A DNA stretch of 25,619 nucleotides, taken from positions 1 through 25,619 of IMG/VR virus record IMGVR_UViG_3300032277_002989; one strand, 5' to 3'. This document shows positions 1-25,619 of this stretch, in pieces (position 1 is the first letter of the stretch; each line of letters opens with the position of its first letter). This DNA comes from a virus (Duplodnaviria > Caudoviricetes). The translations under genes were made by a program, and so were the position numbers. Under the pieces are notes generated by a model. That model ran no database searches and was not told the DNA's origin. It worked only from the letters and a program-made list of their open reading frames with translations.

Positions 1-2916
1 CTATCTTGCCCTCGACTGTCCCTGCACGGGCATTTCCGCGAAGGCTATGTAGATGTAGGTGCCGCCGGAGGCGTTAAGCGCGGCTGAAGTACCTGTACGC
101 CATTTAAATCCACCAGCATTGAAATCAATCATATTTGCTTCGACCCCCTCTGCCCAATTCCCATCAGGCCATAAAGATTGAGTCATTACATTATATGGAT
201 CACGGGCATTATCAATAATACGCCAGCTACCAATTGCATCTGTCCGTTTCACCATCACAAACGCCGGTCGGAACCCGCAGTAAACAAAAGGACCGTCTGC
301 TGAACCGTTACCAACATAAGACCCAAACTTTGAGAAGCCTTCAATTCCGACCCAACTCAAACAAAGGAAATCAGTTGCTGTATTCCAGCCAGTCCATGAA
401 CCCGTTGTGAAATTGGTAGCATCTGGAACACCATTGAACACCGTTCCGCCCACACCTTTTGCAGCAGAAGACTCAAGAGTGAGGTACTCAGTACCGGCTA
501 AATCTTTATGCCACACGTACCACGACTGCGCGGCTAGCTGTTTGACGATCATAAACTCTGGGGCACCCGCAGCGTTGCCATGTGCAACGGATAAAGATGC
601 GGCCATAGACGCATCAGGTATAACCTTAATATGGAAGCCAGAAGTAACGCTGGCTTCCCAGCACCATGCGACGTAGTTGTTTCCGGTTTCCTTGGTGTAA
701 AGCCCGTTAGTTACACCGTCTGATAAGGTAATGCCGTTTGCATCTATTGATGACAAATACCCATTCGCATCCGGGGTCGTTGCTTCCGCTTGTGTCCCGT
801 CCGAGTACATGTATTTGGTCACGCCACGGGTGGTATTATAGAGCATGTGGGAATAGGCGGATGTTCTGTTTTTAATCCAAACGAGATCAGGTGACAAATT
901 GCTATTGCCAGAGAACGTAACAGCTAACGTTGGCGCAACACTTCCGGCCCACGTAACAACCTGAAAATGCGCGGACGGATCAGGGATTGCCGGGTCGGGG
1001 AAGTTGGCAGTGTTGAGTAATTTAAACCCAAATGGCAGAGTCATTGTCCCGTCAAGGATACCACCACCAGTACCAAAGTCCATCGTACCCCCACCCGTAT
1101 TTTTAGTTTGAGCCCCGATGTAATAGGTGTCGGCGGGTAGCGTGTAAGTCGCATTTGTGCCAAGCCCAGGTTCGTCGGTTGCCCGCATCACCCCCACGCT
1201 GTCCATCCAATCTATTGCCGTGGTCCCGGTGTTATAAATTCCATACCAGAGTTTTAAGTTGTCAAGGTCAACAGCCATTAGATACCAGTCGTCATTAGCA
1301 ACCATTGCCGTTGTAGGTGTACCAGTAATGGTGATTGAATTGTTCCGCGCTGTGAATGCGGTCCCCGCCGTTAGGCAATAACATCCCCACCCGTCCGCCG
1401 TAGTCTCAGGGTTTTCAATACGGTTCTGCCGTCCTGAGGCATTCTGTAGTTGCAAGTTGGTGCCGTCATCATTCACAGTATTGGGTTGCCGAGCTACAAT
1501 CCACTTACCGGAAGTAAGTCCATTAAGAGATGCAAAACATTGACTTTTAAAAGCTACTGCCCCCACATCTGTTAAGTTTCCATTACTGTAAACAACGCCA
1601 TTAGGGAACGGTTCAGCCGCAGGGTTCCACGTAGCGTAATTCCCAATATTATTATCTACGTCATCAGACGGCGTGTCGGAGACGATTGCAGTTGTCGGAA
1701 TGGAAACTGCTGTGAAATTATTGCCACTGGTAAAAAAACGAAGCTCGCCCATTCGCACATTCGCTGCGGCAACAGTGGGCACTATCGCGACCCAATGGTA
1801 CCGATATGCAGTTGTCGTTGTGATACCTGACGTGAATGATTGTGGCTGACTGGCAATCGTTGAATTAAACAAACCAGAGGTATGCAGCTCAGTGCCGTCC
1901 GTTGGCGTCGTTGGTGCCGTATTCGACCCATAAAGTTTTATCGTTACTTCACTTGTATCGTCTGCGTACCCGGCGTTGTTCACATCCCACGTGTCATATC
2001 GGGTAATGGTTTTAGTGTTGCCTACGCCCCAATCCTTGCCAACATACGCACTAGACACTGTGCCGCGTTTGGATGAGCTGTTAGCACCATCTGCTGACAC
2101 AGTTGTTCCGTCAAACGAAGCCGCTAGAGAGTTGCCAGCAGTGACGTCTGTCATATCACCGATAACAGAGCCAACGCCGTCACCAACCACTGAATTATTA
2201 GTGGAGCCGCTTACATCCTTACCCGGATCGGCACTGTCGGCAAAATCCAACCAGAAACCATTCGTGCCGAAGGTCAGCCCGGACGGATCGATGGGTTGCC
2301 AATTGCCGTTGGCATCGAATTCGCCGAAGGAAGTTGCGGTTAGGGACGCGCCGTCAACAAAGGTTACCTCAGCATTACAACAGTCAGCGTAAAGGCCAGC
2401 ATATTCCCCTGACCTGCCAACGCTATGGGCATACGTAGTTGTATTCACCAAACATGCTGCATAATTTAGAGTTGGGTTAATCTCAGTTGAGAAACTTGTT
2501 TCTTCGACTCCGTTAATATGAATTCGTACTCTGTTCGCTGCGACTCCTTGTGTGGTGTCTACGGTAACAACAATGTGATACCAAGCAGTGGGGTCTCTAA
2601 ATAAGCTGGTAGTTACTAGCCTCCATACATAAAGACTGGCGGCTCTGTGTCTAACCTCAAGAGCACCAGACGATATAAATAAGATAGAAGTATCCGTGGT
2701 TCCTGCACTATCAGCACTTCCAAATAGTATTTTGGCTGAGGTCCCTATGCTCCCGCGTTTAACCCAACTGCTCCACGTCCACGTTTTTTGATTTCCAGCC
2801 ACGCTTGGCGTCCGATGTAAATAATCTGCAACGCCATCGAAAACGAGGGCGTTGTTAATGGTATATCCGGTATTCGGGTTGGATATACAGACGGGTATCG
2901 TTAAGGGTCCAAACAT
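1..2916 (-). CDS. Large receptor-binding/tail-associated protein (LamG/concanavalin A-like domain, probable discoidin-like insert, SPRY-like domain, C-terminal beta-rich repeats), 971 aa
   Basis: WTWSSWVKRG and FRDPTAWYHIVV (LamG-like), YSNGNL...GKW (SPRY-like), PDLVWIKNR and FSKFGSYVGNGSADGPFVYCGFRPAFVMVK, which are typical of marine phage tail proteins. The start overlaps the stop of the fibre gene (TGATG). Confidence 0.8.
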   Translation of the reverse strand: MFGPLTIPVCISNPNTGYTINNALVFDGVADYLHRTPSVAGNQKTWTWSSWVKRGSIGTSAKILFGSADSAGTTDTSILFISSGALEVRHRAASLYVWRLVTTSLFRDPTAWYHIVVTVDTTQGVAANRVRIHINGVEETSFSTEINPTLNYAACLVNTTTYAHSVGRSGEYAGLYADCCNAEVTFVDGASLTATSFGEFDANGNWQPIDPSGLTFGTNGFWLDFADSADPGKDVSGSTNNSVVGDGVGSVIGDMTDVTAGNSLAASFDGTTVSADGANSSSKRGTVSSAYVGKDWGVGNTKTITRYDTWDVNNAGYADDTSEVTIKLYGSNTAPTTPTDGTELHTSGLFNSTIASQPQSFTSGITTTTAYRYHWVAIVPTVAAANVRMGELRFFTSGNNFTAVSIPTTAIVSDTPSDDVDNNIGNYATWNPAAEPFPNGVVYSNGNLTDVGAVAFKSQCFASLNGLTSGKWIVARQPNTVNDDGTNLQLQNASGRQNRIENPETTADGWGCYCLTAGTAFTARNNSITITGTPTTAMVANDDWYLMAVDLDNLKLWYGIYNTGTTAIDWMDSVGVMRATDEPGLGTNATYTLPADTYYIGAQTKNTGGGTMDFGTGGGILDGTMTLPFGFKLLNTANFPDPAIPDPSAHFQVVTWAGSVAPTLAVTFSGNSNLSPDLVWIKNRTSAYSHMLYNTTRGVTKYMYSDGTQAEATTPDANGYLSSIDANGITLSDGVTNGLYTKETGNNYVAWCWEASVTSGFHIKVIPDASMAASLSVAHGNAAGAPEFMIVKQLAAQSWYVWHKDLAGTEYLTLESSAAKGVGGTVFNGVPDATNFTTGSWTGWNTATDFLCLSWVGIEGFSKFGSYVGNGSADGPFVYCGFRPAFVMVKRTDAIGSWRIIDNARDPYNVMTQSLWPDGNWAEGVEANMIDFNAGGFKWRTGTSAALNASGGTYIYIAFAEMPVQGQSRAR

Positions 2917-4247
2917 CAGACTTGTGCCCCCGAGTAAGTGAGCCGGATGTTTGTGCCGTTACCGCAGTAATAGCCGATCAGGTAGGTACCCGCCGCGCTT
3001 ACGGTTGCCTCGAAATTTGCGTCCGCCGTGACGTTTAGCCCTTTGGTGATCGCGTAGGCCGTAGGATTGGCAAGCTCAATCAATCCGCCTTGCCCGGCTG
3101 TCACGTTGGTAAACTCGATCACGTCGGCGGCAATTGGCGCCCAAGAGAAATTGTTCGCCGCCAGCATGTCAAAAGAACCATCGTTGTCGGTTGTTGCCGC
3201 CGAACGTTGCGAGCCGGTCCATGTTTGGTCGCTGGTGAGGTCGAGAGAGATGGTTGAGCCTGTTTTACTAAGCCCCACCCCGGCGCTGGTTGTTGACGCG
3301 CCGAAGGTGATCCAGTTGTCTGGGGTGGCAGCGTCGGCGACCATCGTCGCGAATTCCGTATCCGCCGTCATGACGTAGGACGTGCCGCCGTTGATCGTGT
3401 CGGTTCCGGCCCGGTTGATCGTCAAGGTGTTCAACGCGGATGATTTCATGAAACCGACACGGAAACCTTCGGCGACGTCGGTGACGATATCCGGCAGGGT
3501 GACGATGATATTCCCGCCCGACGTGTCGACAAGAAAGAGCGTCCCGTCGTCCGTCGAGATCACGGAAAACGCCAATGCCTTATTCAAGATCGTTGAATAA
3601 AGATTTGCCGCCGCCGCTGTCGCCGCTGCGGTCGCCGAGTTGGCAGCATTGGTTTCGCTGGTCGCGGCGTTTGTCGCCGATGTTGCGGCATTGGTTTCAG
3701 AGGTTGCTGCTGCTGCCGCGCTCGAGGCCGCATCCGTCGCTCCACTTTCAAGGAAGGCCAGAGTTGTTGTTGAGGCAACAGGTTGTCCGGTGGCATCGAA
3801 ACCGAGAACCTTGTCCATTCGCGTCGCCTTGTCAGGCAGTTCCATGCTGGTATCTGCATCAAAAGGCTTTAGGTGAAGGCCACGATTAGCCTGTTCTTCA
3901 ACCTGTTGAATTTCCGCCGTCAACTGGTCCAGTTCATCGTTCAAAACCTGGGCGCGCAGTACACCGGACTGTTGGAAGTCACTGATCCGCTGAATGGCAA
4001 TGTTCCGCCGCAACGTTATCAACGTCCCATTGGCCGGTGCGATCAAAAATGAAACGTCACCACCAGCCGATACCCCCGCCCCTGAAACCGTATAGTCCGT
4101 GGTCAGGATGGAAGGGGTGCTGTCGATATAGACCTCCAGATCTCCGTCATCGAATATGGGGAACGGATAGGTGAATGCCGCCTGAGTGCCATCGCCCGTG
4201 TATTGAATTCGAGGAGCCGTATCGCCGACCTGAATGTGTTCAGCCAT
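2916..4247 (-). CDS. Tail fibre/spike adaptor with T7 gp17-like N-terminal attachment domain, 443 aa
   Basis: N-terminus YTGDGTQAAFTYPFPIF...DYTVSG...GGDVSF...APANGTLITLRR...LNDELDQL, followed by an Ala/Thr/Ser heptad region. RBS AAAGGA upstream. Confidence 0.85.
   Translation of the reverse strand: MAEHIQVGDTAPRIQYTGDGTQAAFTYPFPIFDDGDLEVYIDSTPSILTTDYTVSGAGVSAGGDVSFLIAPANGTLITLRRNIAIQRISDFQQSGVLRAQVLNDELDQLTAEIQQVEEQANRGLHLKPFDADTSMELPDKATRMDKVLGFDATGQPVASTTTLAFLESGATDAASSAAAAATSETNAATSATNAATSETNAANSATAAATAAAANLYSTILNKALAFSVISTDDGTLFLVDTSGGNIIVTLPDIVTDVAEGFRVGFMKSSALNTLTINRAGTDTINGGTSYVMTADTEFATMVADAATPDNWITFGASTTSAGVGLSKTGSTISLDLTSDQTWTGSQRSAATTDNDGSFDMLAANNFSWAPIAADVIEFTNVTAGQGGLIELANPTAYAITKGLNVTADANFEATVSAAGTYLIGYYCGNGTNIRLTYSGAQV
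3607..3735 (-). repeat. Heptad (about 21 bp) AATSETN/AATSATN coding repeats in the tail fibre
   Basis: Translation SAAAAATSETNAATSATNAATSETNAANSATAAATAAA; boundaries approximate. Confidence 0.7.
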
Positions 4248-4332: not shown

Positions 4333-4725
4333 TCAGGGTTCAGACTTCCAAACCTTGATGCCTTTTTCGACGGATCTGCCGACGACGTAACCGCCAAGGC
4401 CGATCTTGATGATTTCGAATAACGCTAACTCGACCTCTGCGGTGATGCCGGGGGCCGTGAATCCCAGCCACCGCGCAACAATCAGCGCGACAAAGGTGAG
4501 CATGGTCAGGGGTCGCCACGAGCGTTGAATCCAGCTACCGCCCTGGGCTTCGGAGATGACGATCTTCATCGCCGCCTCGACCTCTTTCATCTGGCCCTGC
4601 AGAACCAAAGTCTGCAAATTGTTCTTCAATAAGTCGGCTTGGTCCTTGTCCTCAACCACCTGATCGACGGCAGAGAAAAGTCCGTTCAGCAGGGGTGCTG
4701 CGATGCTGCTCAGTAATCCGATCAT
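4333..4725 (-). CDS. Holin, 3TM (GTA_holin_3TM-like) family, 130 aa
   Basis: VVEDKD...EAQGGSWIQRSWRP, hydrophobic segments, GLGGYVVGRSVEK; lies directly after the endolysin. Confidence 0.85.
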   Translation of the reverse strand: MIGLLSSIAAPLLNGLFSAVDQVVEDKDQADLLKNNLQTLVLQGQMKEVEAAMKIVISEAQGGSWIQRSWRPLTMLTFVALIVARWLGFTAPGITAEVELALFEIIKIGLGGYVVGRSVEKGIKVWKSEP

Positions 4726-4728: not shown

Positions 4729-5178
4729 TTACTCCACATCGTTATAGAACTGGTGGTTGCCAATTTCGCAGGCGTACATGCGCCCGCGCGCCCAGGGTGG
4801 AAACACACAATTTGCGTGATAGTGCGTCGCGCCGCTGGTCGGGTCTTTCAGGGTTCCGGCAATCGCCCGCCGGGCAATGCGAAGGCAGGACTGATAGGTT
4901 CTGTTTTTTGACGTTACCTGAAGCAATTTTTCCCGGTTAGGATCGTCGGTATTCCAGCAACTGAACTGCCATTTTTTCAGACAGACGTCGCGCACGCTCG
5001 CCCCCCACCAATACCGTCCGCCTCTCGCTCTGGCTTTGGCGACCCGGTTCAGGATAACGTTTGCCACGGCTTCCTTGCCGGAAATATTCTCGCCACGGGC
5101 CTCGCCGTAAAGTGTCCGTGCCAGGATTTCCACGTCCTGCATGTCCGTAGGCTTCAGAGTTTGAGTATCGATTTTCAT
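4729..5178 (-). CDS. Cell wall hydrolase (SleB/Hydrolase_2 family), probable endolysin, 149 aa
   Basis: LARTLYGEARGE, AVANVILNR, QFSCWN, DPTSGATHYH, IGNHQFY. Confidence 0.92.
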   Translation of the reverse strand: MKIDTQTLKPTDMQDVEILARTLYGEARGENISGKEAVANVILNRVAKARARGGRYWWGASVRDVCLKKWQFSCWNTDDPNREKLLQVTSKNRTYQSCLRIARRAIAGTLKDPTSGATHYHANCVFPPWARGRMYACEIGNHQFYNDVE

Positions 5179-5483
5179 TGGTCTCTTCCTTTGGGTTGCG
5201 TACGGTCAAGCTTGTCTTCGATACGCAGGAGATGATGGGTCAGCCGCCGTTCCACCTCTTTCAGATACGAGATCGAGGCATAGGATTTGGCGACCTCGAG
5301 CTTGAACGCCGACAGTCGGTCGCGAATGAGTGAAAGGCCCGTATCGAAGTCATGGCGGGCGTCGTCGAGGGTGGTTTCGGCATCACTGCGGGTGCGCCAC
5401 GTCAACCAGAATAACCCGGCCAGAACTGGCAGTTCGACGGCGGTAATCCACCAGATCAGATCGAGGGTCCAGGGTTGCTGCAT
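5175..5483 (-). CDS. Single-TM plus coiled-coil lysis-module protein (holin/antiholin-like), 102 aa
   Basis: ATG at 5483 with AAGGAG RBS; one TM (LIWWITAVELPVLAGLFWLTW); C-terminal LLRIEDKLD; 4-bp ATGA overlap with the endolysin. Confidence 0.65.
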   Translation of the reverse strand: MQQPWTLDLIWWITAVELPVLAGLFWLTWRTRSDAETTLDDARHDFDTGLSLIRDRLSAFKLEVAKSYASISYLKEVERRLTHHLLRIEDKLDRTQPKGRDQ

Positions 5484-5508
5484 GTTGGTCTCCTTTTGGT
5501 GCGGACAT

Positions 5509-5530
5509 AAAAAAAGCACCCGGAAGGTGC
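5509..5530 (-). terminator. Intrinsic terminator just upstream of the lysis module
   Basis: Minus strand GCACC-TTCCG-GGTGC-TTTTTTTATG. Confidence 0.75.
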
Positions 5531-5560
5531 GTTGGAAAAATTATCGTTGATGAAACGTTG

Positions 5561-5857
5561 TCAGGATTCAGGGTCTTTCTGTTTGACCTTGCGCCAGTTC
5601 TCGCCGGCAAGCACAAGACAACTGATGCCATTGGCGCGGGTGATGACCACCGTGAAACTGCCCTGCTTCGATGTATACAGCTCGAGCAGGTTTTCGCCGA
5701 CAATGCCGACCGATGTGGGCTTTTCATCAAATCGCTGTTTGAGCCGTTTGGTAACGTCGCTTCGTTTGGCGCAGACCATGGCGGCGCTTGCCGGGTGGGC
5801 GGTGATTAGTATCGCCGGAAGTAGTGCTACGATCAGTACAATACCTAACCGTTTCAT
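5561..5857 (-). CDS. Small secreted two-cysteine hypothetical protein, 98 aa
   Basis: Sec signal peptide ending ASA; Cys pair (VCAKR...ISCLV); AAAGGA RBS. Confidence 0.75.
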   Translation of the reverse strand: MKRLGIVLIVALLPAILITAHPASAAMVCAKRSDVTKRLKQRFDEKPTSVGIVGENLLELYTSKQGSFTVVITRANGISCLVLAGENWRKVKQKDPES

Positions 5858-5982: not shown

Positions 5983-6717
5983 TCAGATTTTGTTTAGCTC
6001 CTCAGGCCAGGGCCAATCAACTTGGGCGTATACGTTTTTCCAAAACTCCAAGAGTTTCTCGTAATTCCCTCCACCGCTTCGCCGTTCTTTGAGACGATCT
6101 GAAACCTCATCGGCCGTTATTTCCTGCAATAAGTCCAAACCGCCGTAATAATCGATGAACCGATCAATCAGTTCTGGCTCACCCCCGAGGACACCAAAAT
6201 CGTCGTGATCACCGGACGATATCCATCTGCCATCGCGAGAAAACATGCATGCGCCATCGCACTGGTAGTTAATTGCTGACGCAGTGATTGCTGTATCCAC
6301 AACTTCACGAGTGGGGGCGCACACGATGGTGTCTTGCCATTGAGTTCGGATTCCAGTCGTAAACTGACTTGGGTGGAACTCTTCCGTTATGATTACTTCG
6401 TCTGTTCCATCCTCCTCAAGAATTCTCCACAGAGGTTCCAGGTGGTCACGCCCGGCGAAAATAACATCGGGGTCATATCCATAGGTGCAGTCGCTGGTAT
6501 AGGCGCTTCCTCTGACAAATATTGTTTTCCATGTCGGGTCTTGAAATTTGGGTGGGATATAACGACGCAGGCCACTAAGGTCGTGGCCGTAGATCTGTTG
6601 AACAATAGGTCCAAACTCACGCAGGGTTTCCGCGCCATCGCAGACCTTCCACGTAATCCCTTTTGTTTCAGGTTCCCAACGCAAATCCAGTTCGTCGGCA
6701 TTTATAGTTTTCATCAC
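5983..6717 (-). CDS. Acidic hypothetical protein, possible toxin-immunity protein, 244 aa
   Basis: Strong GGAGGAG RBS overlapping the end of the upstream ORF; acidic and aromatic; segment MFSRDGRW...HDDFGVLGG resembles immunity proteins (inference). Confidence 0.6.
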   Translation of the reverse strand: MMKTINADELDLRWEPETKGITWKVCDGAETLREFGPIVQQIYGHDLSGLRRYIPPKFQDPTWKTIFVRGSAYTSDCTYGYDPDVIFAGRDHLEPLWRILEEDGTDEVIITEEFHPSQFTTGIRTQWQDTIVCAPTREVVDTAITASAINYQCDGACMFSRDGRWISSGDHDDFGVLGGEPELIDRFIDYYGGLDLLQEITADEVSDRLKERRSGGGNYEKLLEFWKNVYAQVDWPWPEELNKI

Positions 6718-6719
6718 CT

Positions 6720-6990
6720 TTACTCCTCCGGAAATCGAACCTTGATCTGCGGCATTTTATTTTTGTTTTTCGCGCCGGGTAATTCCCGACCGACGATATG
6801 CCCAGCCACTGTCGGGCCTTTATCGGATCTTGAATACCGGTATTGCACCAGCGTTGTGCCATCCGGGCATGGATAGTTTCGCGCGCCCGTTCCATCTTTT
6901 ACCACCACTGCGGAGCTCTCTCCACAATCATTTACGGCCTGTTCATCCAGCGCCATAGCGGTTCGGTATTCGATTGTTTGATTCTCCCAA
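6720..6990 (-). pseudogene. Probable truncated C-terminal fragment of a toxin-like gene
   Basis: The predicted 5' end of ORF 6720..7055 overlaps the CapRel stop and runs through its terminator, so that start is doubtful. The 3' part (PDGTTLVQYRYSRSDKGPTV) resembles small RNase toxin tips and abuts the next gene. Confidence 0.35.
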
Positions 6991-6991
6991 G

Positions 6992-7012
6992 AAAAACCCC
7001 GCCGGAGCGGGG
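6992..7012 (-). terminator. Intrinsic terminator of the CapRel-like gene
   Basis: Minus strand CCCCGC-TCCG-GCGGGG-TTTTT, 11 bp after the stop codon. Confidence 0.75.
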
Positions 7013-7023
7013 ATGGTAACACT

Positions 7024-8331
7024 TTATTTTTTACGCTTTCGTTTATTCCATCCACGTTTCACAAGTTCTTCTTCAGTAACTCTACGGTACCCCCCTTTTG
7101 TCCATTGAAGGTCGCCAATCGGCTCCCGCCTTACCTGCGCTCGATGGACTGGAGGAACAGTATACTCCTCAACCGGTGAACCCGACAAAATCCGCCGCAA
7201 TGTTTGGGTGAAATACGCCACATCCGTAAAATAATTTGGATACGCCTGTTTCAGGCTTTCTACATTGTCCGCCTCAACAAGGACTGTTTTTCTATTTTCA
7301 TTGTGGGTTTCCACGTTCTCCAGTTCGCGCCGACGGTAGTCGCTCAATGCGTCCGACGGACCATATTTTGGCACTGCTCTGACCTGTTTGGAAACATGAT
7401 CGTATTCCAACAGATAGTATGTCGGATTATTGGTTTTGGTATAAACGAGATCTAGGCTTTGACTCACATACCTTAGGTCGTCCAACACATCTGCTGCGTT
7501 CAGGGCCCGATTTAGCTCTTTAATCTCCTGATTCCTCTGCGCCCGTTCTGGTACATGTCGAGACACCGGCGCATTCTCTACCAGCGCAAATTCCGCCGAC
7601 ATCAAATCAAAAAGTCTAAGCCATCGCTCATCACCTTCGCCTGCCTTCATGTCTTGGCCATTGATCAGACCGGCGGCCTCTACCGCAGTTGCCCACGCGT
7701 GTTGGAGGCGGCTTCTTACCTGTATCTCAATTCTTCGGCCATCAAACCTTTCTGCTTCGCCCTTCCCCTGGAACTTGTAAATCAGATGGACCGACCTGTA
7801 CCCGCCTTCTTTGGGATCAGCGACATAGTCATCCTCATCGAAAAACTTGTGATTAAGTTTTTCTTTGATTTCAGACACTAACACATTTGCATCGTTCATT
7901 GATGGCAGTATTGCCCGGACCCCGCCCAGGTCTTGTATTTGGTTTAGCTTTCCTGCGTGATTTCTGAGCTTCTTGCGGACAGAAGGCATTCTCTTCAAGC
8001 GTGCGACCGTTATCCCCTCCAGCCCGGCAATCCTGATTCTCGCGCTAACACTTCTCATGATGCTATTTATGGGGTGGGCGTGCGAAGAGCGCCAACTGCT
8101 CGCGATCTGAAACACTCTTAGCGTTTCCTCTCGGCATTCTGGTTCGAATGTCAGCGTGCCTCTGAGAGTATCTCCCGCCCTTCTGACGTCTCTGTTGCTA
8201 TACTCAAAAGAGGGGAAATCGGCCACGGCGTAATCCGAACTACTTGGAACAGGTGTGAGGTGATTACCCACCATAACAGATTTATCACCAACCTCGCCAC
8301 CTTCGCCTTCGCATGTGCGTTGAGGAATCAT
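7024..8331 (-). CDS. capRel: CapRel-like fused toxSAS toxin-antitoxin (RelA/SpoT synthetase domain plus C-terminal sensor), anti-phage defence
   Basis: YS..DVRRAG..L, WRSSHAHP, ARLKRMPSVRKKL, QDLGGVRAI, DYVADPKEGGYRSVHLIY, IEIQVRSRLQHAWATAVE, C-terminal YYLL...VLVEA...AYPNYF. ATG 8331 has an AGGT RBS; ATG 8274 is an alternative start. Confidence 0.8.
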   Translation of the reverse strand: MIPQRTCEGEGGEVGDKSVMVGNHLTPVPSSSDYAVADFPSFEYSNRDVRRAGDTLRGTLTFEPECREETLRVFQIASSWRSSHAHPINSIMRSVSARIRIAGLEGITVARLKRMPSVRKKLRNHAGKLNQIQDLGGVRAILPSMNDANVLVSEIKEKLNHKFFDEDDYVADPKEGGYRSVHLIYKFQGKGEAERFDGRRIEIQVRSRLQHAWATAVEAAGLINGQDMKAGEGDERWLRLFDLMSAEFALVENAPVSRHVPERAQRNQEIKELNRALNAADVLDDLRYVSQSLDLVYTKTNNPTYYLLEYDHVSKQVRAVPKYGPSDALSDYRRRELENVETHNENRKTVLVEADNVESLKQAYPNYFTDVAYFTQTLRRILSGSPVEEYTVPPVHRAQVRREPIGDLQWTKGGYRRVTEEELVKRGWNKRKRKK

Positions 8332-8651
8332 GAACACCTACCTTATGTTTGGGTACCAAAGTACAATCGCGCTAACAAAAACTACACCCAGCTTTCCATT
8401 TCACCTGAAATCCGATGATGGTCGCTATCACCGCCACTGCCCAGGAGAGCATTCCGTCGTGGCAGAATTATGGGCGTTATTGGGCTTTAGTATGTTTCAA
8501 TCTTCAAGAATTCAACTTCGCCAGCAGTTTCCCGATAGTCATCCGTGCTATTGGCAGGGTAACGTCTCGGTGCATACCGGACCTGATTTAAAAGTCGTAG
8601 AGGGTTCTACGGACCACCGCGTCGTGCCTTGATGGCTGTCTAATTAGCCCC

Positions 8652-15592: not shown

Positions 15593-16414
15593 TCAGACTT
15601 CGAGGCAGCGCATTGAGACGACACCGGAGGCGTCGATCAGGCACGAACCCTGTGACATCATGTTGTTGATAAAGTTGGCGGCCCGGTCTCCATGCCAGGT
15701 GACATCGGTTTTTACTTCCGAGCCGATGGCGTGGCCGATGGCGGTTTTGTGGTACCAATAGCAGTAGCGGATGTTGCCGCCGTCTTTGGTCAGGCCCGAA
15801 TGCGGCATCCACAACGCCCCAAGCCAGCGTTTGGCCTGGGTACCTTTCCACGGAAGTTCGTCTTCGCCGATATAGTCGGCATTGGCGAATTCCGGAATCC
15901 CCAGAAGATCGGACCACTGTTTCCAACCGATCACCGCATAACGCTCACCGTCATCCGGAACATCGGCGTTCCCCAGTAGTTCGAAGGCTTCGAGAACCTT
16001 GGCCTTGGTCAGGCCATCGAGCCCTGACCCGGCGTAGTTAGTTGACGTATCGAGCTGGGTGATGACCATCTCGTCGGTCTTGCGCCCCAGTGCATAAGCA
16101 CCGGCACGGGCAATCACGGTGCGCTCATCGGACGGGCCTTTGATTTCATCCAGCTTGTCGACCCAGTCCCCGGCGTAATAGTCGTAAAGCTGACATTCCA
16201 CCGGGGTGTGATCGATATTCATCACCGGGACTTTGCCGTGGCGGGCTTTGGTGCTGGCTGTTCCTTTACCGACCTTCTGGAAGGTCGTGGAGGAGCCGAT
16301 GATACCGTTTTTAGTCCGCACCGTATTTCTAAGCTTGGAACCCATCCGCTGATATTGCAGGTGGACGTCCGCCTGGAAATGTTTGACGAACGACTGAGTT
16401 ATTGACGTCGACAT
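15593..16414 (-). CDS. Major capsid protein, podovirus HK97-fold, 273 aa
   Basis: FVKHFQADVHLQYQRMGSKLRNTV, YYAGDWVDKLD, AYALGRKTDEMVI, DVPDDGER, WYHKTAIG, GSCLID..GVV. ATG 16414 has an AAGGAG RBS. Confidence 0.88.
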   Translation of the reverse strand: MSTSITQSFVKHFQADVHLQYQRMGSKLRNTVRTKNGIIGSSTTFQKVGKGTASTKARHGKVPVMNIDHTPVECQLYDYYAGDWVDKLDEIKGPSDERTVIARAGAYALGRKTDEMVITQLDTSTNYAGSGLDGLTKAKVLEAFELLGNADVPDDGERYAVIGWKQWSDLLGIPEFANADYIGEDELPWKGTQAKRWLGALWMPHSGLTKDGGNIRYCYWYHKTAIGHAIGSEVKTDVTWHGDRAANFINNMMSQGSCLIDASGVVSMRCLEV

Positions 16415-18678: not shown

Positions 18679-18864
18679 TCAGGCCAGACCCGCCGGCATC
18701 ACGTCGCGTAACCACAACAGGTCTTCGCCGGCCTCAATCAGCTGTTCTTCCAAACAGAACAGGACGTCTCCCGTCAGCCGGTCAATGATCGCCTCGGCCC
18801 GGTCATCGGGCAGCGCCAGCAGCCCTGACAGGCTGGCGTGAATAAGGTGTCTTGGGTCCATCAT
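18679..18864 (-). CDS. Small acidic helical hypothetical protein, 61 aa
   Basis: TAATG overlap with the upstream gene and a GAGGA RBS; stop lies 5 bp from the convergent DHH gene stop. Confidence 0.5.
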   Translation of the reverse strand: MMDPRHLIHASLSGLLALPDDRAEAIIDRLTGDVLFCLEEQLIEAGEDLLWLRDVMPAGLA

Positions 18865-19484
18865 TACCGTCCTCGTTCTTCCAGCAGATCGACAAACGGG
18901 CTGATGGATTTCTGAAACGCCTGAAACTGCCCCCGTTTGCGTGCCGAAGATTCTTCCAGCAGGTTGATCCGGTTTGCCGATGCCGTCTGCTGACGAACAC
19001 TGCCCAAATGATCGTTTGATGCCTCATCGGTCTGTTTCTGCAAGCCCCTCAGAACGGCACTCGCTGAACCGCCGGCGGATGATGTGCCACTGGCCCCAAA
19101 GCGCGCCCGTTGCTGGGCAAGGGTTCGCTTGAGATCACTCCGCCGTTTTCGCTCGGCTACTTCAAAATCCCGTTGAAGCCGCGCACGTTCGGCGTCGTTT
19201 CGGGCCCGGGCGATGGCGGCTTGCGATCTCTGTTGTTGCAGCGCCCCCAATTGCGTTAATCCGGTTAGCCCGGCATTTGCTGCGACTGCCCAAGGAGATA
19301 CTGTCGGGGCAATGACTGCACCGAATTCACCAATTCCTCCTAGCCCAGTAAGTCCAGCGGAGCTGGCGAGCGACGCAGCACTAGCGGACCCCGCAGTTGC
19401 AGCGGCTCCAGCAATCGCTGCCCCAAGATAAGGAGCCGCAATCGCTGCCGCAATTGGAAGAGCTACCTTTCCAAAGTCTCCCAT
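18864..19484 (-). CDS. Internal virion (ejection) protein, gp14-like, copy B with long hydrophobic Gly/Ala N-terminus, 206 aa
   Basis: Motif QQRARFGASG..GGSA shared with 10202..10645; AAAGGAG RBS. Confidence 0.65.
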   Translation of the reverse strand: MGDFGKVALPIAAAIAAPYLGAAIAGAAATAGSASAASLASSAGLTGLGGIGEFGAVIAPTVSPWAVAANAGLTGLTQLGALQQQRSQAAIARARNDAERARLQRDFEVAERKRRSDLKRTLAQQRARFGASGTSSAGGSASAVLRGLQKQTDEASNDHLGSVRQQTASANRINLLEESSARKRGQFQAFQKSISPFVDLLEERGR

Positions 19485-19511: not shown

Positions 19512-20996
19512 CTAAGCCAAAAACCCGAGCATCTGTCCGAGCCGTTTGCTCAGGTCGTCGGGGTCTTTAATTTTGCTGGCGAGCTCGAAGACCGTTCGGG
19601 TTTTGGGACCGATGTCACCATCGATTTTTAGTTTTTCGACGCGCCCATCCGTTGCTTCATTCAGCGCCTCCTGCAGGATTGTTGCCTCGACTCTGTTGCC
19701 TGTGGAGTTGTCATCGCCTCTGAACAGTCTCCCGAAAGCTTTTGCAGTTTGTGCCTCAAGTGCTGAGGTGTCGGCGGACTTCCGGGTCTCTTCGATCAAC
19801 GTTCTGAACTTGCCGAGCGCCACGGCTTCTTCAATCTTGCCCGGGCCGTTGGTCGCCAGAGCACGCCGGAACTGGGCCCGTGTCTTGGGCCCGAACGTGC
19901 CATCGGTTTTCAACAGGGACCGACGCGGCCCTGTTTCCGCATTGATCAGGTTGAGGCCGGATTGCAGCTCCTTGACCGGAGGGGGGGAGTCGTCATCATC
20001 AGCACCTTTGATAATTTTCTCGCCAATCCGCCGCGCCGCCGCATCCAGATCTTCGCCGTCCGGGGTTTGCAGGGGTGATGGTTTATCAGGGATAGAGACA
20101 CGTGCTTCCGGTTCGATCAAACGACCGACCGCATCCCGGTCAACTTCGTCGGTGCCATAACGACGATCATAAAATGTCCGAACCGCCTGATCCATGCCCC
20201 CCCGTTCCGGGTGGCCCGAAGGCAGCGCCGCAACCCGCCCTTGAACCCGGCGCGCTTCCTCTTCAGTCCAAAGCGAAGGGTCTTTAAGCATGACTTCTTC
20301 CACTTCATCGCCGGGCCGGGATGCGTCTTCTATGAATTTCCGTTTCTCAGGAGAGATGGGGCCGTCCTTTTTGGCGCCCACACCTGGTTTTTGATCTTCT
20401 GCATCCTGTTCTTTGCCGTCAAACACGTCGATATAAGGAGCAGGTAAGACCACCATATCTTCAACTAGGTCCAGATAGGGGGCTGGAATAACGCCATCAA
20501 AATCATCCTTTGTTTCCAAGTCATCATGCAAGGGTTCTGCATCTTTTTCTGTTCGATAAGACCGTTGCGACGGAATCTTCCGGCCAAACCCGTCCATTGC
20601 CTGCCTTGCGGCGTCGGATGCTTTCGCACCCTTGCGGCCCAATTGGAAAGCCGCATCGCCAATAGATTGAAGCTCCTCCAGTTCTGATTTTGATAGTGGT
20701 GAAAATTCTTGTGCCTTCAGTGCACGGTTTATGAGGTAGGCGCCCTTGGAAAACTCAAACCGTTTCTTGAATTCGAACGCGCCCATCGATGCAGCCTTTT
20801 CGAGCTCTTCATAAGTGGTAGACCCAGATGCAAGAAAGTTGTCTGCCAAAGTCTTTATATCATCTAGTGTCCGGATGCCGGTCGATTGCTCTTGATATGC
20901 TGTAATCCCTCGACCGGTGATCGCCTCCATAAGAGCCATCGTCGCGGCTTTGCGGTTAACTATATATTCTCGTTTTTTTGCTCTATCTTCTGGCAT
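19512..20996 (-). CDS. Hypothetical internal/cargo protein with two peptidoglycan-binding-like motifs, 494 aa
   Basis: LQSGLN...LKTDGTFGPKT and LQEALN...LKIDGDIGPKT; tandem PAPYxD repeats; GAGGA RBS. Confidence 0.65.
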   Translation of the reverse strand: MPEDRAKKREYIVNRKAATMALMEAITGRGITAYQEQSTGIRTLDDIKTLADNFLASGSTTYEELEKAASMGAFEFKKRFEFSKGAYLINRALKAQEFSPLSKSELEELQSIGDAAFQLGRKGAKASDAARQAMDGFGRKIPSQRSYRTEKDAEPLHDDLETKDDFDGVIPAPYLDLVEDMVVLPAPYIDVFDGKEQDAEDQKPGVGAKKDGPISPEKRKFIEDASRPGDEVEEVMLKDPSLWTEEEARRVQGRVAALPSGHPERGGMDQAVRTFYDRRYGTDEVDRDAVGRLIEPEARVSIPDKPSPLQTPDGEDLDAAARRIGEKIIKGADDDDSPPPVKELQSGLNLINAETGPRRSLLKTDGTFGPKTRAQFRRALATNGPGKIEEAVALGKFRTLIEETRKSADTSALEAQTAKAFGRLFRGDDNSTGNRVEATILQEALNEATDGRVEKLKIDGDIGPKTRTVFELASKIKDPDDLSKRLGQMLGFLA

Positions 20997-21024: not shown

Positions 21025-21768
21025 TCAATCTCTCTCAGGATAAAGTTTCTGAAATCCTTCACGCACTTCGGCGACGATGGAGGGGTCTTGATCGCGCCAG
21101 TAGCGGGGGTCGCGCATCAGCGATTTCAGGCTTTTTTCGTTGACGCCGCTGGTTGCCTGACTGCCCGGTTCCAGCAATCCCGGCTCGCCCTTGCTCATCA
21201 ATTGGTGCATGGATTTGACGCCCTCGACCGATGAGGCCAGGGCCTGATAGACGTCGGTGGGATAGTTGGCTTTGCCCCATTTGGAAATCTGTGCCGACAG
21301 ATCTCGCCAGCTGTCTTCACCGCCAAATTCTTCGGCCAGTCGGGCGACCTGATGCTGGGCTTCCATCTCCACCGACATTTGGGTGACTAGCGGATACAAG
21401 TGTTCACCCGCCAGGTCGTAGACCATCTGCGCCTGGTTTTGGGTAAAACCCGCCTCATGAAGGCGGGCGTTTAAGGCCGGATCGGAATTTACCAATTCAC
21501 TTGATGGCGTGATGGCGTAATCGTCAACGGTCTCTGGCACAATATCCTGGCCCTGACCACCCAACCGTTTCTCCAGCGTAAGATAGGACTTCAGCAGTGA
21601 GTCGGTTCGGATATCGGATTTTTCCTCATCCCAGAATTTGTCCGGTAATCCGTCGGGGCGGGGGGCGCTTTCAGCGGATAGTCCCGGTGGGGTTGAGGCA
21701 TCCGGAGCAAATTCCGTGAGCATTTCGCCAAAGGACTCGGTTGCCTCAGGTGATGTCAGATCGGTCAT
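21025..21768 (-). CDS. Capsid scaffolding (assembly) protein, T7 gp9-like, 247 aa
   Basis: RPDGLPDKFWD, LLKSYLTLEKRLG, VPETVDDY, C-terminal MRDPRYW..DP; acidic. ATG 21768 has a GAAGGA RBS. Confidence 0.85.
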   Translation of the reverse strand: MTDLTSPEATESFGEMLTEFAPDASTPPGLSAESAPRPDGLPDKFWDEEKSDIRTDSLLKSYLTLEKRLGGQGQDIVPETVDDYAITPSSELVNSDPALNARLHEAGFTQNQAQMVYDLAGEHLYPLVTQMSVEMEAQHQVARLAEEFGGEDSWRDLSAQISKWGKANYPTDVYQALASSVEGVKSMHQLMSKGEPGLLEPGSQATSGVNEKSLKSLMRDPRYWRDQDPSIVAEVREGFQKLYPERD

Positions 21769-21796
21769 GTTGTTTTCCTTCTGTCGTGACGGGGTG

Positions 21797-22087
21797 TCAA
21801 TTGGGTGGGTTGGCGCCGTGCTCAACCATTTTGCTCAACATGGCGACCAACTGGCGTTGGCCTTCCAAATGACGGAGCAGGGTGTCGCTGGAGTCAGGCC
21901 CGAGGGTACGTTCAATGGTGATGGCCCGAAGGTAGTCAAGCAGGTAGCTGCCCTCGTGGGTCTGGAACAACCGTGCGGCGATTTTCACCAGCTGCGCTTT
22001 GTCAAAGGGTGACGGCGAAGTTTGTTTGGCCGGTGTCGGCTCAAACCAGTCCCAGTCGCCACGTTGGTCATGTGTCCGGTCACTCAT
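21797..22087 (-). CDS. Bbp19-like small protein between portal and scaffold, 96 aa
   Basis: ARLFQTHEG..LLDYLR...LRHLEGQRQLV pattern; 8-bp overlap with the portal gene end. Confidence 0.7.
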   Translation of the reverse strand: MSDRTHDQRGDWDWFEPTPAKQTSPSPFDKAQLVKIAARLFQTHEGSYLLDYLRAITIERTLGPDSSDTLLRHLEGQRQLVAMLSKMVEHGANPPN

Positions 22088-23669
22088 TTACGGTCTCCGT
22101 CGGCAAAAATGATTGAGCGAGTTCGGTGATGTCGGGACCTGACGGAGAAATATCTCCCAGGAGACCGGCGACTCCCGCGAGATCAGGCGGTATGTCGCTG
22201 AGGCCGTCTGATCCCGGTTGACGGATAATGTCGCTGGGTACGCCAAAGGCCTTACCCAGCCAACGTGCCGCAGCACCATGATCGACGACACCGGCACCTT
22301 CTGGCCCCAATACCTGAATAGCCTCGAGCCAGCGAATGGTGTTTTGTGAATCCTGGCGCGCCTGTTGTCGGGCCAGTGGTGACTTGTATTCAAGATCAAC
22401 GGTGCGCCCGTCTATATGAATGTCGGCCACTTCACCGCGTCGCCTGAGGATCGCTAGCGCCCGGCTGACCAGCGGCGTCAGTAGTTCCGATTGCAATCGC
22501 CCATAAGTGGCACCCAATAAACGGGCCATATCGGCAGAGCGTTCCAAGACTTCCGTCGCTGTCATTCGCGGGTCTTCGGGCTGACCCAGTTTGTCGACCA
22601 GTAGGGCGCGACGGATGTTCTTGCGGAGGTCTTGCAAAATCAATTGCGACAGGTCAAATCTTCCGGGTGCTTCCAGGGGTGTCAGGCCAGCCGAGCCGAC
22701 GGCTTTCGGAATAATGGTTCCCGGTTTCAGTTTGATATTGGCCGGGTTCAAAACTCCATCGTCATCGGCCTGCCAGATTCCGGTGACCGCAATGGAGGCA
22801 TTTTTGAGAATTAATTCGACCACCTTGTTGGCCGTTTTAATGTCCGGCAGGGCCTTCATCACGGGTGAGCGTCCGTAAACTTCTCCCGGTGCCTTCAGCC
22901 AGCGAAAGTTTATAAAAGGCGAGTGGCGGAATTTTCCCTTCGACAGCAAAGTCGCTTCGCTATGTCGATCGCCACTGCCCTGTGTGGCGGCATAATAGCT
23001 GTACCCCCGTTCAACCGGAATGACCGCCTCGATCACTCCGATCCGGAAATCAGCATCCTTTTGACCGTGTTCAATGACCTCTGCAGGCAACGCTGCATCC
23101 GGGAACCGTGAGCGAATTTGTTCGGGCGTCAGTTCGGATCGCCGGTAGGTGGTATCCAGTTGACCGAAGGCGTTTTCCTCAAAGACGACCTGCGATAAAG
23201 GCACGGCGGTAAATCGAAACGCCGTTGGGGCGCCAGGCTCGGCTTCTTCGAACAACAGACAGGCGCTACCGACGGCCACCAGGTCGAGGTAACACTGATG
23301 CATTTCGATGGCAAAATTGGAGCGGTCAAAATGAGACTGTAAGGTCGATGCAGTACTTTCCAATGTCGACGCAACCAAGGAGCGTTCTTCGTCGGTGATA
23401 TCAGGACCTTCGGTAAACCCGAACCACCTTGCCCATGGCGGGGTTAATTGTGACAGTAGGCTGGCGGCCAGGTGTTCAACGCCATCCGGTGCTGTGCCAT
23501 CAAACAGCTTATCGGATTGTTTCGATCCGGGAGTCGCAGAACCCGACGCATTACCTTTGTGGGGCAGGGCGAAGTCGTAACATTCCTGCCAGTGCGATTC
23601 CCATGCAAATCGTTTCTGTTTGGCTTTTTCATAACGCTCGCTCAGTTGAGTTGCGGATGTCTCTGTCAT
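22080..23669 (-). CDS. Portal (head-to-tail connector), T7 gp8/Bbp21-like, 529 aa
   Basis: WESHWQECYDFALP, LFDGTA, LTPPWARWF, SNF..EMH..YLDL, RW.K.PGEVYGRSP...ALPDIK, MTATEV.ER, EYKSPLA. Confidence 0.95.
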   Translation of the reverse strand: MTETSATQLSERYEKAKQKRFAWESHWQECYDFALPHKGNASGSATPGSKQSDKLFDGTAPDGVEHLAASLLSQLTPPWARWFGFTEGPDITDEERSLVASTLESTASTLQSHFDRSNFAIEMHQCYLDLVAVGSACLLFEEAEPGAPTAFRFTAVPLSQVVFEENAFGQLDTTYRRSELTPEQIRSRFPDAALPAEVIEHGQKDADFRIGVIEAVIPVERGYSYYAATQGSGDRHSEATLLSKGKFRHSPFINFRWLKAPGEVYGRSPVMKALPDIKTANKVVELILKNASIAVTGIWQADDDGVLNPANIKLKPGTIIPKAVGSAGLTPLEAPGRFDLSQLILQDLRKNIRRALLVDKLGQPEDPRMTATEVLERSADMARLLGATYGRLQSELLTPLVSRALAILRRRGEVADIHIDGRTVDLEYKSPLARQQARQDSQNTIRWLEAIQVLGPEGAGVVDHGAAARWLGKAFGVPSDIIRQPGSDGLSDIPPDLAGVAGLLGDISPSGPDITELAQSFLPTETVNE

Positions 23670-23671
23670 GT

Positions 23672-23878
23672 TTATTCTCCTAACAGGGTTTTTCCCGAGC
23701 TCCCGGATTGCTTGGTGGTGAGCAGGCCTCTTCGTGATGTTGCGATCAATCCCGTCCGTCCACGCCGTCGTCGGTCCAAAGCCTCCAGCCGACGCTCACG
23801 GTCTTGGGCATCCGGATCGGGCAAGGGAGGTGGTTCGGGTATGGGCGGTGGTTTTGGGGAAGAAAAAATTGCTCCCAT
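23672..23878 (-). CDS. Small Pro-rich pre-portal virion protein (T7 gp6.7/7.3 position), 68 aa
   Basis: MGAIFSSPKPPPIPEPPP...RRRRGRTGLIATS...KTLLG; ATG 23878 has an AAAGGA RBS. Confidence 0.75.
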   Translation of the reverse strand: MGAIFSSPKPPPIPEPPPLPDPDAQDRERRLEALDRRRRGRTGLIATSRRGLLTTKQSGSSGKTLLGE

Positions 23879-23902
23879 GGAGTGGTCCTTTCGTATCAGG
23901 CA

Positions 23903-24072: not shown

Positions 24073-24471
24073 TTATCGCCAGTCGGTTTTAAGGCGCTTG
24101 AAAAGTTGCCAGGGGGTGAGGACAAAAAGGTCCTGAATCCCTAGCAGTCGTTTGACGGCTTCGACGCAGGTGAACAATGCCGGGGGGCATTTTTTTTGAC
24201 GTACGGGCTGGAGCGTGGTGCGCACGACCCGATATCCCTGTTGGCGAAACCAGAATTCTAAATCAACAGAATCCATTCCGGTGCAAACAGAGAGGCTGGT
24301 CATATGGGCAAGTGGGTCATAAAAAACCCACTGCCCGTGCGTGTATACACAGGCAAAACAATGTCGAAACCCACGCTTCAAGAGTCGCAGCCAACGGATA
24401 TCGGTTTCACCCGAAAATACGATCAGGGCAACGCCGTCGATATCCGGGATTTGATCCTGAACGACTGTCAC
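24073..24471 (-). CDS. Hypothetical protein, possible permuted papain-like (NlpC/P60-LRAT) enzyme, 132 aa
   Basis: His-before-Cys order: GFRHCF ... FTCVEAVKRLLG ... TPWQLF. 4-bp overlap with the upstream gene (GTG start). Confidence 0.55.
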   Translation of the reverse strand: MTVVQDQIPDIDGVALIVFSGETDIRWLRLLKRGFRHCFACVYTHGQWVFYDPLAHMTSLSVCTGMDSVDLEFWFRQQGYRVVRTTLQPVRQKKCPPALFTCVEAVKRLLGIQDLFVLTPWQLFKRLKTDWR

Positions 24472-24833
24472 TCAATAATATCCTTTTTTTTCAAAAGGGT
24501 AGTTAGCTTATCGAGGGCCTCTTCCCATAGGCGATGAGGGCGGACTTCTTCCTGGCAGCGCGGATCGGGTGGGCGTTCATGGTGTCCGTATTTGGCCAAG
24601 ACGTGTACGTGGTGAGGCGTGATTTTTTTGTTGTCGGAAAGGGTTTTGACGGCCCGGTACATGTCGTCCGGTTCGCAAGGACGGGCTTCACGGGCCATGT
24701 CGACCTCCATCCGTGCGCCATCGTTACGCGCTTTCTGGCAACGAATATACCAGAACCATGCTTCTTCCGCAGATTGAAATGGGGTTGTCCGACGAAGTGG
24801 GGTCGTTCGAGGAGCACGGGATTTTCGTCTCAT
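24468..24833 (-). CDS. Small basic helical protein divergent from the repressor, candidate activator/antiterminator, 121 aa
   Basis: ATG 24833 with AAAGGA RBS; PF.SAEEAWFW, RPCEPDD, LWEEAL..L. The function is inferred from position only. Confidence 0.55.
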   Translation of the reverse strand: MRRKSRAPRTTPLRRTTPFQSAEEAWFWYIRCQKARNDGARMEVDMAREARPCEPDDMYRAVKTLSDNKKITPHHVHVLAKYGHHERPPDPRCQEEVRPHRLWEEALDKLTTLLKKKDIIE

Positions 24834-24879: not shown

Positions 24880-24894
24880 GTTCTTATTATGTTC
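24880..24894. promoter_or_regulatory. Alphaproteobacterial LexA (SOS) box GTTC-N7-GTTC
   Basis: GTTC-TTATTAT-GTTC, a perfect consensus match 46 bp upstream of ATG 24833. Confidence 0.75.
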
Positions 24895-24986: not shown

Positions 24987-25619
24987 ATGCTAAAACACGC
25001 TGATGTCTGGCGGGCGCTTGACCGCCTTGCCAAGGAATATAATTTGTCGGCTTCCGGCTTGGCCCGGCGGGCAGGGCTCGACCCGACTACATTCAACAAG
25101 AGCAAGCGGGTTACCCGTGACGGTAAACTCCGCTGGCCAAGCACCGAGAGCGTCGCCAAGGTTTTGGCCGCCACCGGGGCAAGTCTGAACGAATACGTCT
25201 CTTATGTCGGAGAAAGTGGCGGCGCCGGGGTTTATCGAAATATCCCTCTGATTGGTTTTGCCCAAGCTGGGGCGCATGGCTATTTCGATGATGCCGGATA
25301 TCCGGTCGGTGCCAGCTGGGATGAGATTCCATTCCCCGGATTTGCCGATCCCCATGCCTATGCCGTAGAAATCAGTGGTGACAGTATGGAACCCGTATTC
25401 CGTGATGGTGATATCGTCATTGTGTCACCAGAAGCCGGTATTCGGCGCGGCGACCGGGTTGTCGTGAAGACCACAGGCGGTGAAGTGATGGCCAAAACGC
25501 TGCTGCGTCAGTCGGCAAAAAAAATTGAGCTACAGTCCATCAACGTCAGTCACGAAGATCGCAGTCTTGCTGTCGAGGAGGTCGATTGGATGGCCCGCAT
25601 TATCTGGGCCAGTCAGTAG
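24987..25619 (+). CDS. HTH plus peptidase S24 (CI/LexA-like) repressor, 210 aa
   Basis: HTH LSASGLARRAGLDPTTFNKSKR; cleavage site IPLIGFAQAG; catalytic Ser in GDSMEP and Lys in VMAK. Confidence 0.92.
   Translation: MLKHADVWRALDRLAKEYNLSASGLARRAGLDPTTFNKSKRVTRDGKLRWPSTESVAKVLAATGASLNEYVSYVGESGGAGVYRNIPLIGFAQAGAHGYFDDAGYPVGASWDEIPFPGFADPHAYAVEISGDSMEPVFRDGDIVIVSPEAGIRRGDRVVVKTTGGEVMAKTLLRQSAKKIELQSINVSHEDRSLAVEEVDWMARIIWASQ

Follow-up and report, generated by a model that had tools for sequence, protein, structure and literature searches.

A host-inherited podoviral particle cluster of Alphaproteobacteria with variable cargo genes, a candidate system for DNA and effector delivery

The DNA analyzed here, virus record IMGVR_UViG_3300032277_002989, is 25,619 bases long and is referred to in its entirety as the window. 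Its open reading frames (ORFs), 28 of which were scanned against Pfam, PHROGs and NCBIfam, include podoviral head, short-tail, DNA-packaging and lysis genes on the minus strand, preceded by a divergently transcribed repressor gene. This cluster, together with its relatives in other genomes, is called the element below, and it is very probably a real, ancient and host-owned podoviral particle cluster. Its control, particle and lysis features are as follows.

24987..25619, plus strand: repressor of the S24 peptidase type (CI/LexA-like), transcribed away from the particle operon (PF00717, phrog_4)
24880..24894, minus strand: box of the LexA type, GAAC-N7-GAAC, lying upstream of the operon of particle genes
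24468..24833, minus strand: conserved 121-residue protein of no family, the "activator" of the initial annotation (alignment A9)
24073..24471, minus strand: conserved 132-residue protein with an invariant His and Cys, also present in true phages and presumably permuted papain-like
23672..23881, minus strand: small pre-portal phage protein, 69 residues (phrog_831)
22080..23669, minus strand: portal, or head-tail connector (PF12236, E 1.6e-142)
21797..22087, minus strand: Bbp19-like protein (PF25181)
21025..21825, minus strand: T7-type scaffold (PF05396)
18864..19484, minus strand: second gp14-like (internal virion) paralogue, which clusters and aligns with 10202-10645
15593..16414, minus strand: major capsid protein (PF19821, phrog_3437)
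15303..15572, minus strand: conserved 89-residue post-capsid protein (phrog_18004; cluster in 169 loci), by its position a putative decoration protein
12574..13143, minus strand: adaptor, tail tube A-like (phrog_394)
10673..12574, minus strand: nozzle, tail tube B-like (phrog_376; PDB 8ck1, E 3e-58)
10202..10645, minus strand: gp14-like internal virion protein (phrog_418), of the same family and position as a 159-residue gene of Pelagibacter phage EXVC031P Hodr
8652..10151, minus strand: T7-type large terminase (TerL), ATPase and nuclease motifs intact (NF033889; PDB 8dgc, 4bij)
5175..5857, minus strand: two small lysis-region genes (phrog_29007, phrog_25396)
4729..5178, minus strand: SleB-type cell wall hydrolase, the endolysin (PF07486)
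4333..4725, minus strand: holin with three transmembrane segments (3TM; PF11351)
2916..4247, minus strand: tail fiber with a T7 gp17-like N-terminal domain (PF03906)
1..2916, minus strand: DUF7483 distal fiber or receptor-binding protein, strain-variable with patchy strain coverage (PF24299, phrog_19943)

The initial annotation of the window proposed a domesticated podophage-derived system that packages host DNA, delivers proteins, or both. The intact core frames of its morphogenesis set are confirmed, but "near-complete" is not an apt description, as genes of gp15 or gp16 size and a recognizable small terminase (TerS) are missing. The CI-like repressor that it placed beside the particle operon is the S24 repressor, and three small ORFs, not two, separate this gene from the portal gene. 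The "activator" matches no family, with no Pfam domain in 36 of 36 members. As had been claimed, no integrase, replication or RNA polymerase family is found among the 28 scanned ORFs. Sheath and tape-measure families are also absent from the window ORFs in all three databases, in which capsid, portal and terminase are present; the window contains no long exact repeat of the att type, and no tRNA was found in it.

The location and descent of the element identify it as a resident of its host genomes. In a metagenome contig that is identical to the window along 10,037 bases, the repressor is immediately followed, without an integrase, by ilvE, lysS and ubiD, and then by an HD-domain gene, ubiA and a glutamate-cysteine ligase gene; it is this repressor side that provides the flank evidence for the window's own copy. 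In relatives, 32 of 61 non-redundant loci have lysS and/or ilvE no more than 2.5 kb from the repressor, and the opposite flank often contains mutB and gcrA. Searches with capsid, portal and terL returned 80 loci each, mostly from the Rhodospirillales sensu lato and with the same gene order. A capsid match is present in 105 of 401 genomes that evenly sample the class, 64 of them at 52% identity or more (genome completeness being unreported), and the portal is single-copy in five of five genomes. A FastTree phylogeny of five element proteins from 43 genomes shares 20 of 40 splits with the RpoB tree (random mean 0.3, maximum 3), including 15 of the 18 splits with support of at least 0.99, among which there are no conflicts, and the Mantel rho between the two is 0.81. 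Median dN/dS values for close pairs are 0.049 for capsid, 0.053 for portal, 0.08 for nozzle, 0.085 for TerL and 0.03 for the repressor, comparable to those of ilvE (0.061) and lysS (0.081), and 0.2 for the fiber. Each of six tested TerL motifs is present in 90-101 of 101 sequences.

Representatives of the non-core protein clusters were scanned as well (361 of 409, with 48 short or shadow-like ones dropped and singletons below 250 residues left out). Phage integrase families account for two matches, one to a 317-residue protein of XerC/D size and one to a 409-residue protein within one locus; the other matches include a few IS transposases and one host DNA polymerase I. None of the 361 is a primase, helicase or RNA polymerase of phage type. 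The 409-residue protein is a tyrosine integrase at L149:18654-19883, in an Azospirillum himalayense locus, and is probably a secondary insertion. Two further observations concern the integrity of the element in relatives. In loci L002, L034 and L041, the capsid match stops at residue 259-274 and is directly followed by methylmalonyl-CoA mutase, with the tail, terminase and lysis half missing there. In G073, G217 and G322 (L291-L293), element genes are rearranged; these assemblies are of ~0.9 Mb, with completeness not given.

On the basis of the housekeeping flank, RpoB congruence, purifying selection and single copy number, it is well supported that the element is domesticated and not a prophage. 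An origin separate from the RcGTA family of gene transfer agents (GTAs), whose marker shows no overlap with the element in the 401 genomes, is likewise well supported; the initial annotation had proposed both. With no replication, integration or excision genes, and with vertical inheritance under purifying selection, the element resembles the functional class of GTAs.

Domestication has not sealed the element off from phages, while the overall congruence with RpoB stands. Two viral contigs, L438 and L455, have capsids 72-73% identical to that of the element but are true phages with genes of ejection-protein size (700-1270 residues), and L438 also carries what we take to be a primase-polymerase-like ORF. 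Their capsids are nested within the element clade, one as sister to Paramagnetospirillum at 0.99, and their portals group with that of Hodr. Capsid and adaptor of the two phages are close to the element, whereas portal and nozzle are of the phage type. The nested capsids indicate that single genes move between the element and phages, and this exchange keeps open an interference or helper role.

Comparison with the closest named phage, Hodr (capsid 48%, portal 36% identity), shows what the element has lost. Hodr has the same head-to-nozzle order, followed by genes of 159 (phrog_418), 783 and 1247 residues (phrog_342) before the fiber, so that its nozzle-to-fiber stretch spans 6.6 kb, and it has a separate TerS. 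In the element, the median distance from nozzle to fiber is 522 bases, and 107 of 120 loci have less than 1 kb there. A search of 466 loci with the two large Hodr proteins matched only Hodr itself and one true phage; in five genomes the body of gp16 was not found, with phrog_342 matching solely its lysozyme end (5/5). The gp14-like gene at 10202-10645 is the only ejection-type gene after the window nozzle, and the gp15/gp16 ejection genes of related true phages are absent from the element. In T7, gp14 forms an outer-membrane pore, and gp15 and gp16 form the tunnel to the cytoplasm that is needed for genome translocation (PMC8954989). With a gp14-like protein and no gp15/gp16, the element would thus get no further than the periplasm. 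Recipient cells take up RcGTA DNA through host ComEC, ComF and ComM (PMC10883770), which makes the loss of gp15/gp16 compatible with gene transfer.

The promoter region of the particle operon suggests how the element would be controlled. A perfect GTTC-N7-GTTC or GAAC-N7-GAAC box is found in 34 of 89 repressor-operon spacers, some of which are truncated (50 shuffles: mean 0.42, maximum 3). GTTC-N7-GTTC is the alphaproteobacterial LexA motif (PMC8565304). The box has a nearly constant position after a TTGAC hexamer; in the window, this hexamer was identified by eye upstream of the box, and a promoter scan of the window did not list it. By the box at its promoter, the element fits the alphaproteobacterial SOS regulon, with LexA binding predicted, and induction would proceed through RecA/LexA and the S24 repressor upon DNA damage. 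Before the TTGAC hexamer, at 24925-24960 in the window and in homologues, lies a conserved TAGGA/CAGGA...TCCTA-like motif that may be the operator to which the repressor of the element binds.

Between the particle genes are variable slots with unrelated cargo, as the initial annotation had described, and an opposite-strand host-type gene.

19512..20996, minus strand: cargo of class A, a 494-residue PG_binding_3 protein (PF09374)
18679..18864, minus strand: 61-residue ORF, common to the closest relatives L002, L017 and L096
16751..18673, plus strand: host-type ODP-domain protein, an opposite-strand insertion (PF19583), with a C-terminal extension that is presumably DHH-like
13696..15105, minus strand: cargo gene of 469 codons with one in-frame TAG (14701-14703)
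7024..8337, minus strand: RelA/SpoT-domain gene, a strain-variable moron (PF04607, phrog_4773)
5983..7055, minus strand: two cargo ORFs, a small ORF and a 243-residue ORF (no families; 4 homologues), possibly an orphan toxin tip and its immunity gene

The ODP-domain gene had been singled out by the initial annotation as a host-type gene in the middle of the cluster. Across several genera, 45 loci carry it in reverse orientation between the scaffold and capsid genes, in a short form in Magnetospirillum and in a long, fused form in the window. The RelA/SpoT-domain gene, in the slot between terL and the lysis genes, could be a defense or toxin module; in two related strains its region is uncovered, with a loose end at 8651.

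Two families of cargo protein are distinguished by their conserved domains, referred to as tags. Class A proteins share a C-terminal ~270 residues with peptidoglycan-binding repeats and have unrelated N-termini, among them a lysozyme-like domain (Pfam match below the cut-off), DUF6973 and a His/Cys papain-like domain recognized by eye. Class B proteins begin with a PG_binding_1-like tag, and their C-termini, which range from 0 to >500 residues, include an M23 peptidase, a PBECR3 nuclease and MuF. Of 59 variable segments, two match M23, one PBECR3 and one DUF6973 above the cut-off, and two match lysozyme and one a hydrolase below it. As judged from sequence, the fusion of a conserved domain to variable domains resembles that of polymorphic toxin systems. 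In cargo proteins of L009, L018, L019 and L151, the class B tag is succeeded by a second shared motif, GDT.LAH.TP.EA...GG..NP.TGL.EF, which has no PHROG match. For the class A domain, an Atlas structure neighbor in an Ntox44-bearing cluster reached a TM of 0.48 and was kept as a lead only. In two divergent relatives (capsid 44-47%), L299 (G203) at 2500-13500 and L300 (G056) at 5400-15000, long alternating arrays of a small protein that is DUF6973-like by eye and a ~380-residue membrane protein lie next to the capsid gene; neither a class A nor a class B tag was found in these two loci.

The genes beside the cargo encode Sel1-repeat, CAAX/Rce1, DUF2927, MORN or no-family proteins, often in tandem. 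By a crude hydrophobicity test, a signal-like N-terminus is present in 0 of 113 tagged proteins, and a signal or transmembrane stretch in 56 of 84 cargo neighbors, as compared with 395 of 2042 background ORFs (19%). In G092, six class B genes are interleaved with five opposite-strand, signal-bearing partners between scaffold and capsid, and among loci cargo occurs in several different slots between structural genes; a Terasakiella locus, L049, is also among those that bear cargo. For the relative L180, from Paramagnetospirillum kuznetsovii, and not for proteins of the window, the lysozyme-like domain and the protein encoded upstream are predicted to bind each other with a score of 0.67, the best of three controls being 0.01; the mark used for this score is reached by 116 of 157 solved pairs and 2 of 215 mismatched pairs. 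At least 68% of the contacts recur between runs, the partner has a pLDDT of at least 67, and the predicted interface includes residues beside the conserved Glu17. These effector/immunity-like cassettes give real support to the protein-delivery half of the original proposal.

Cargo also differs between strains. In a strain 98.5-98.9% identical to the window, the same class A protein carries a different N-terminus, and contigs from two other studies break at 20339 and 21025, the points of this N-terminal swap. Low-depth contigs skip the slots at 13080-15364 and 5921-8651, and one of them joins the ends of 5921-8651, as expected of an empty site. Directly after the interrupted cargo gene, at 13640-13695, a short hairpin-like sequence is observed and no immunity ORF. 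Of the 401 genomes, 11 carry one tag and 25 the other, and the capsid is present in 9 of these 11 and 18 of these 25.

Similar to RcGTA of Rhodobacter and Caulobacter, the element combines head, tail and terminase genes without replication genes, is passed on vertically under purifying selection and has a 3TM holin, and it likely relies on host uptake proteins. It differs from RcGTA in having a podoviral T7-type portal, scaffold, nozzle and TerL, its own S24 repressor and LexA box, and polymorphic cargo. The RcGTA marker GTA_TIM (PF13547) is absent from the window ORFs, and none of the 33 genomes with PF13547 is among the 105 with a capsid match, a non-overlap that amounts to few independent events because both systems are inherited by clade. 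The element is thus GTA-like in descent and gene content and is not a member of the RcGTA family. Large RcGTA clusters are reported to be absent from Rhodospirillales and Micavibrio (PMC5721377), and RcGTA-type homologues are described in some of these, including Azospirillum brasilense (PMC9254644; PMC3899980). The mitomycin-induced 10-kb particles of Azospirillum lipoferum are ascribed by their authors to RcGTA-like genes, and they cannot be linked to the podoviral cluster. No description of the present cluster was found in the literature searched, which included PMC10386132 and PMC13626063 by search term, supplements and a possible listing as "prophage" aside.

Hodr and related temperate podophages (L438 and L455, with the HTVC010P group more distant) share the order portal, Bbp19, scaffold, capsid, small gene, adaptor, nozzle and gp14-like gene, and the identity of their capsids to that of the element ranges from 48% (Hodr) to 73%. 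Unlike the element, these phages have TerS, another TerL family, replication or recombination genes and ejection proteins of 700-1270 residues; no cargo tag was found in Hodr and the related podophages compared. The cargo resembles MuF polymorphic toxins, in which a conserved domain, a variable toxin domain and an immunity gene lie in the head module, and one cargo protein of the element has MuF itself. MuF toxins belong to mobile, mostly siphoviral temperate phages, their loading into heads is hypothesized, and they are the closest head-associated precedent (PMC5576092). Unlike in MuF toxins, the tags of the element are peptidoglycan-binding domains, its host locus is fixed and many of its effectors appear periplasmic. 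Tailocins and extracellular contractile injection systems are headless long-tail devices without a terminase. The element is like them in that its structure comes from a domesticated phage with variable fibers and, as predicted, in being controlled by DNA damage, released by lysis and supplied with effector cargo, and unlike them in keeping head, portal and TerL and in having only a short tail.

The reading that we prefer, with a probability of about 0.45, is that the element encodes an SOS-induced, DNA-packaging, short-tailed particle that breaches only the outer membrane and, in many lineages, co-delivers interchangeable antibacterial effectors. DNA damage would lift repression by LexA and by the element's own repressor; heads would assemble with tagged effectors inside, in place of gp15/gp16, and the T7-type TerL would fill them with host DNA by non-specific packaging. 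Holin and SleB would lyse the producer and release particles, whose fibers would bind neighboring cells and whose gp14-like protein would open an outer-membrane pore, such that DNA and effectors enter the target periplasm. From there the DNA would be taken up by host competence proteins, as in RcGTA; immune kin would gain DNA and other cells would be damaged, with the producer protected by the adjacent immunity-like genes. Every step of this chain is one that we infer. In evolutionary terms, and more tentatively, the element may be an ancient nanomachine that was made from a podovirus and spread across the class by descent: the host may have kept the head, the DNA pump and the outer-membrane pore, lost the tunnel across the periplasm and put polymorphic toxins with peptidoglycan-binding domains into the head instead, such that a single SOS-triggered particle would give DNA to immune kin and kill non-kin.

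Several results weigh against this reading. The link between cargo and particle consists of co-location and co-occurrence, with no physical tie to the head, and the co-occurrence of tag and capsid is inflated by shared ancestry. Of 91 capsid loci, only 30 have a tag in the 15-20 kb that were retrieved, which implies that cargo is not a core function, and a LexA box lies within 300 nt of only 2 of 44 tagged ORFs. Most of the 59 variable segments have no Pfam match, and both lysozyme matches are below the cut-off. In the window, the class A gene has no immunity-like neighbor and the second cargo gene is interrupted by its stop codon; a PBECR call for 13696-14592, an Atlas lead at 0.87-0.89, stays no more than a lead, as this segment has no Pfam match and no similarity to the PBECR3 domain of L027. 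Only 70 of 144 loci have a gp14-like gene after the nozzle, and the assignment of this gene relies on phrog_418 and position, with no match in a PDB profile search. A search for terL found none in G002, the closest relative, whose assembly is incomplete. A helical 113-residue protein (phrog_31793) that may be TerS precedes terL in 81 of 136 loci; it has no PDB sequence match, and its all-helical model has no fold match at E<=0.001. It also has no HMM match in the window at E<=10 and is missing in three of the five genomes searched. Finally, at support of at least 0.95, 4 of 25 element splits conflict with RpoB.

In the main rival, a possible but doubtful one in our estimation, the element is solely a podovirus-derived GTA and the toxin/immunity cassettes share its SOS induction and lysis, as colicins and S-pyocins do, without being loaded. 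Conservation of TerL, portal and capsid does not depend on whether cargo is present, 61 of the 91 capsid loci have no tag, many tagged genes are far from the cluster, and lineages with the element are largely without RcGTA (PMC5721377). This rival does not readily explain why cargo recurs in several slots between structural genes, nor how lysozyme-, M23- and peptidoglycan-binding cargo without signal peptides would cross the outer membrane of a target. Alternatively, the particle could serve chiefly to kill other bacteria, as tailocins do, but with a head; its DNA would then be a filler or propellant, and gene transfer would be incidental. The LexA box, the variable fibers (dN/dS 0.2) and the polymorphic cassettes are in keeping with a weapon, as is the loss of gp15/gp16, which T7 needs for genome translocation (PMC8954989); two thirds of loci lack in-locus cargo, however, and in the RcGTA precedent host ComEC, ComF and ComM import particle-delivered DNA (PMC10883770), and a weapon is accordingly considered improbable.

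Still less probable is a role in interference with phages or in dependence on a helper, for which the capsid and adaptor of the element would mix with those of related temperate podophages and either spoil their assembly or borrow TerS, gp15 and gp16. The nesting of the L438 and L455 capsids in the element clade, with portals that group with Hodr, and the absence from the element of parts that such phages encode would suit this role, but the element has a full gene set of its own for head, tail, terminase and lysis, on which selection is strong, and its vertical descent without an integrase or origin speaks against mobilization. An ordinary or decaying prophage would account for the calling of the window as a virus record, for its interrupted cargo gene and RelA-type moron, and for the split or truncated clusters of some relatives. 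A prophage is nonetheless very improbable given the fixed site, tree congruence, host-level dN/dS and single copy, and given that the 361 non-core proteins yield two integrase-family matches and none to a primase, helicase or RNA polymerase of phages.

The cluster is present in about one-sixth of the sampled alphaproteobacterial genomes, and its culturable hosts include Magnetospirillum, Azospirillum, Terasakiella and Caenispirillum. It fills much of the gap that RcGTA is reported to leave in Rhodospirillales and Micavibrio (PMC5721377), and it does so by independent domestication of a different type of phage. If the cargo is not loaded, the element is a novel form of GTA that the literature searched does not describe. 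If the cargo is loaded, the element joins gene transfer agents with polymorphic toxin delivery, and the harm that the particle also does to non-kin becomes a candidate reason for the upkeep of lysis-based DNA donation. The more tentative evolutionary reading, if true, would make the element the first head-based, short-tailed effector-delivery system and a GTA counterpart in lineages without RcGTA; it is the modular effector/immunity-like cargo, together with the selective loss of the periplasmic tunnel, that would make it a new kind of system.

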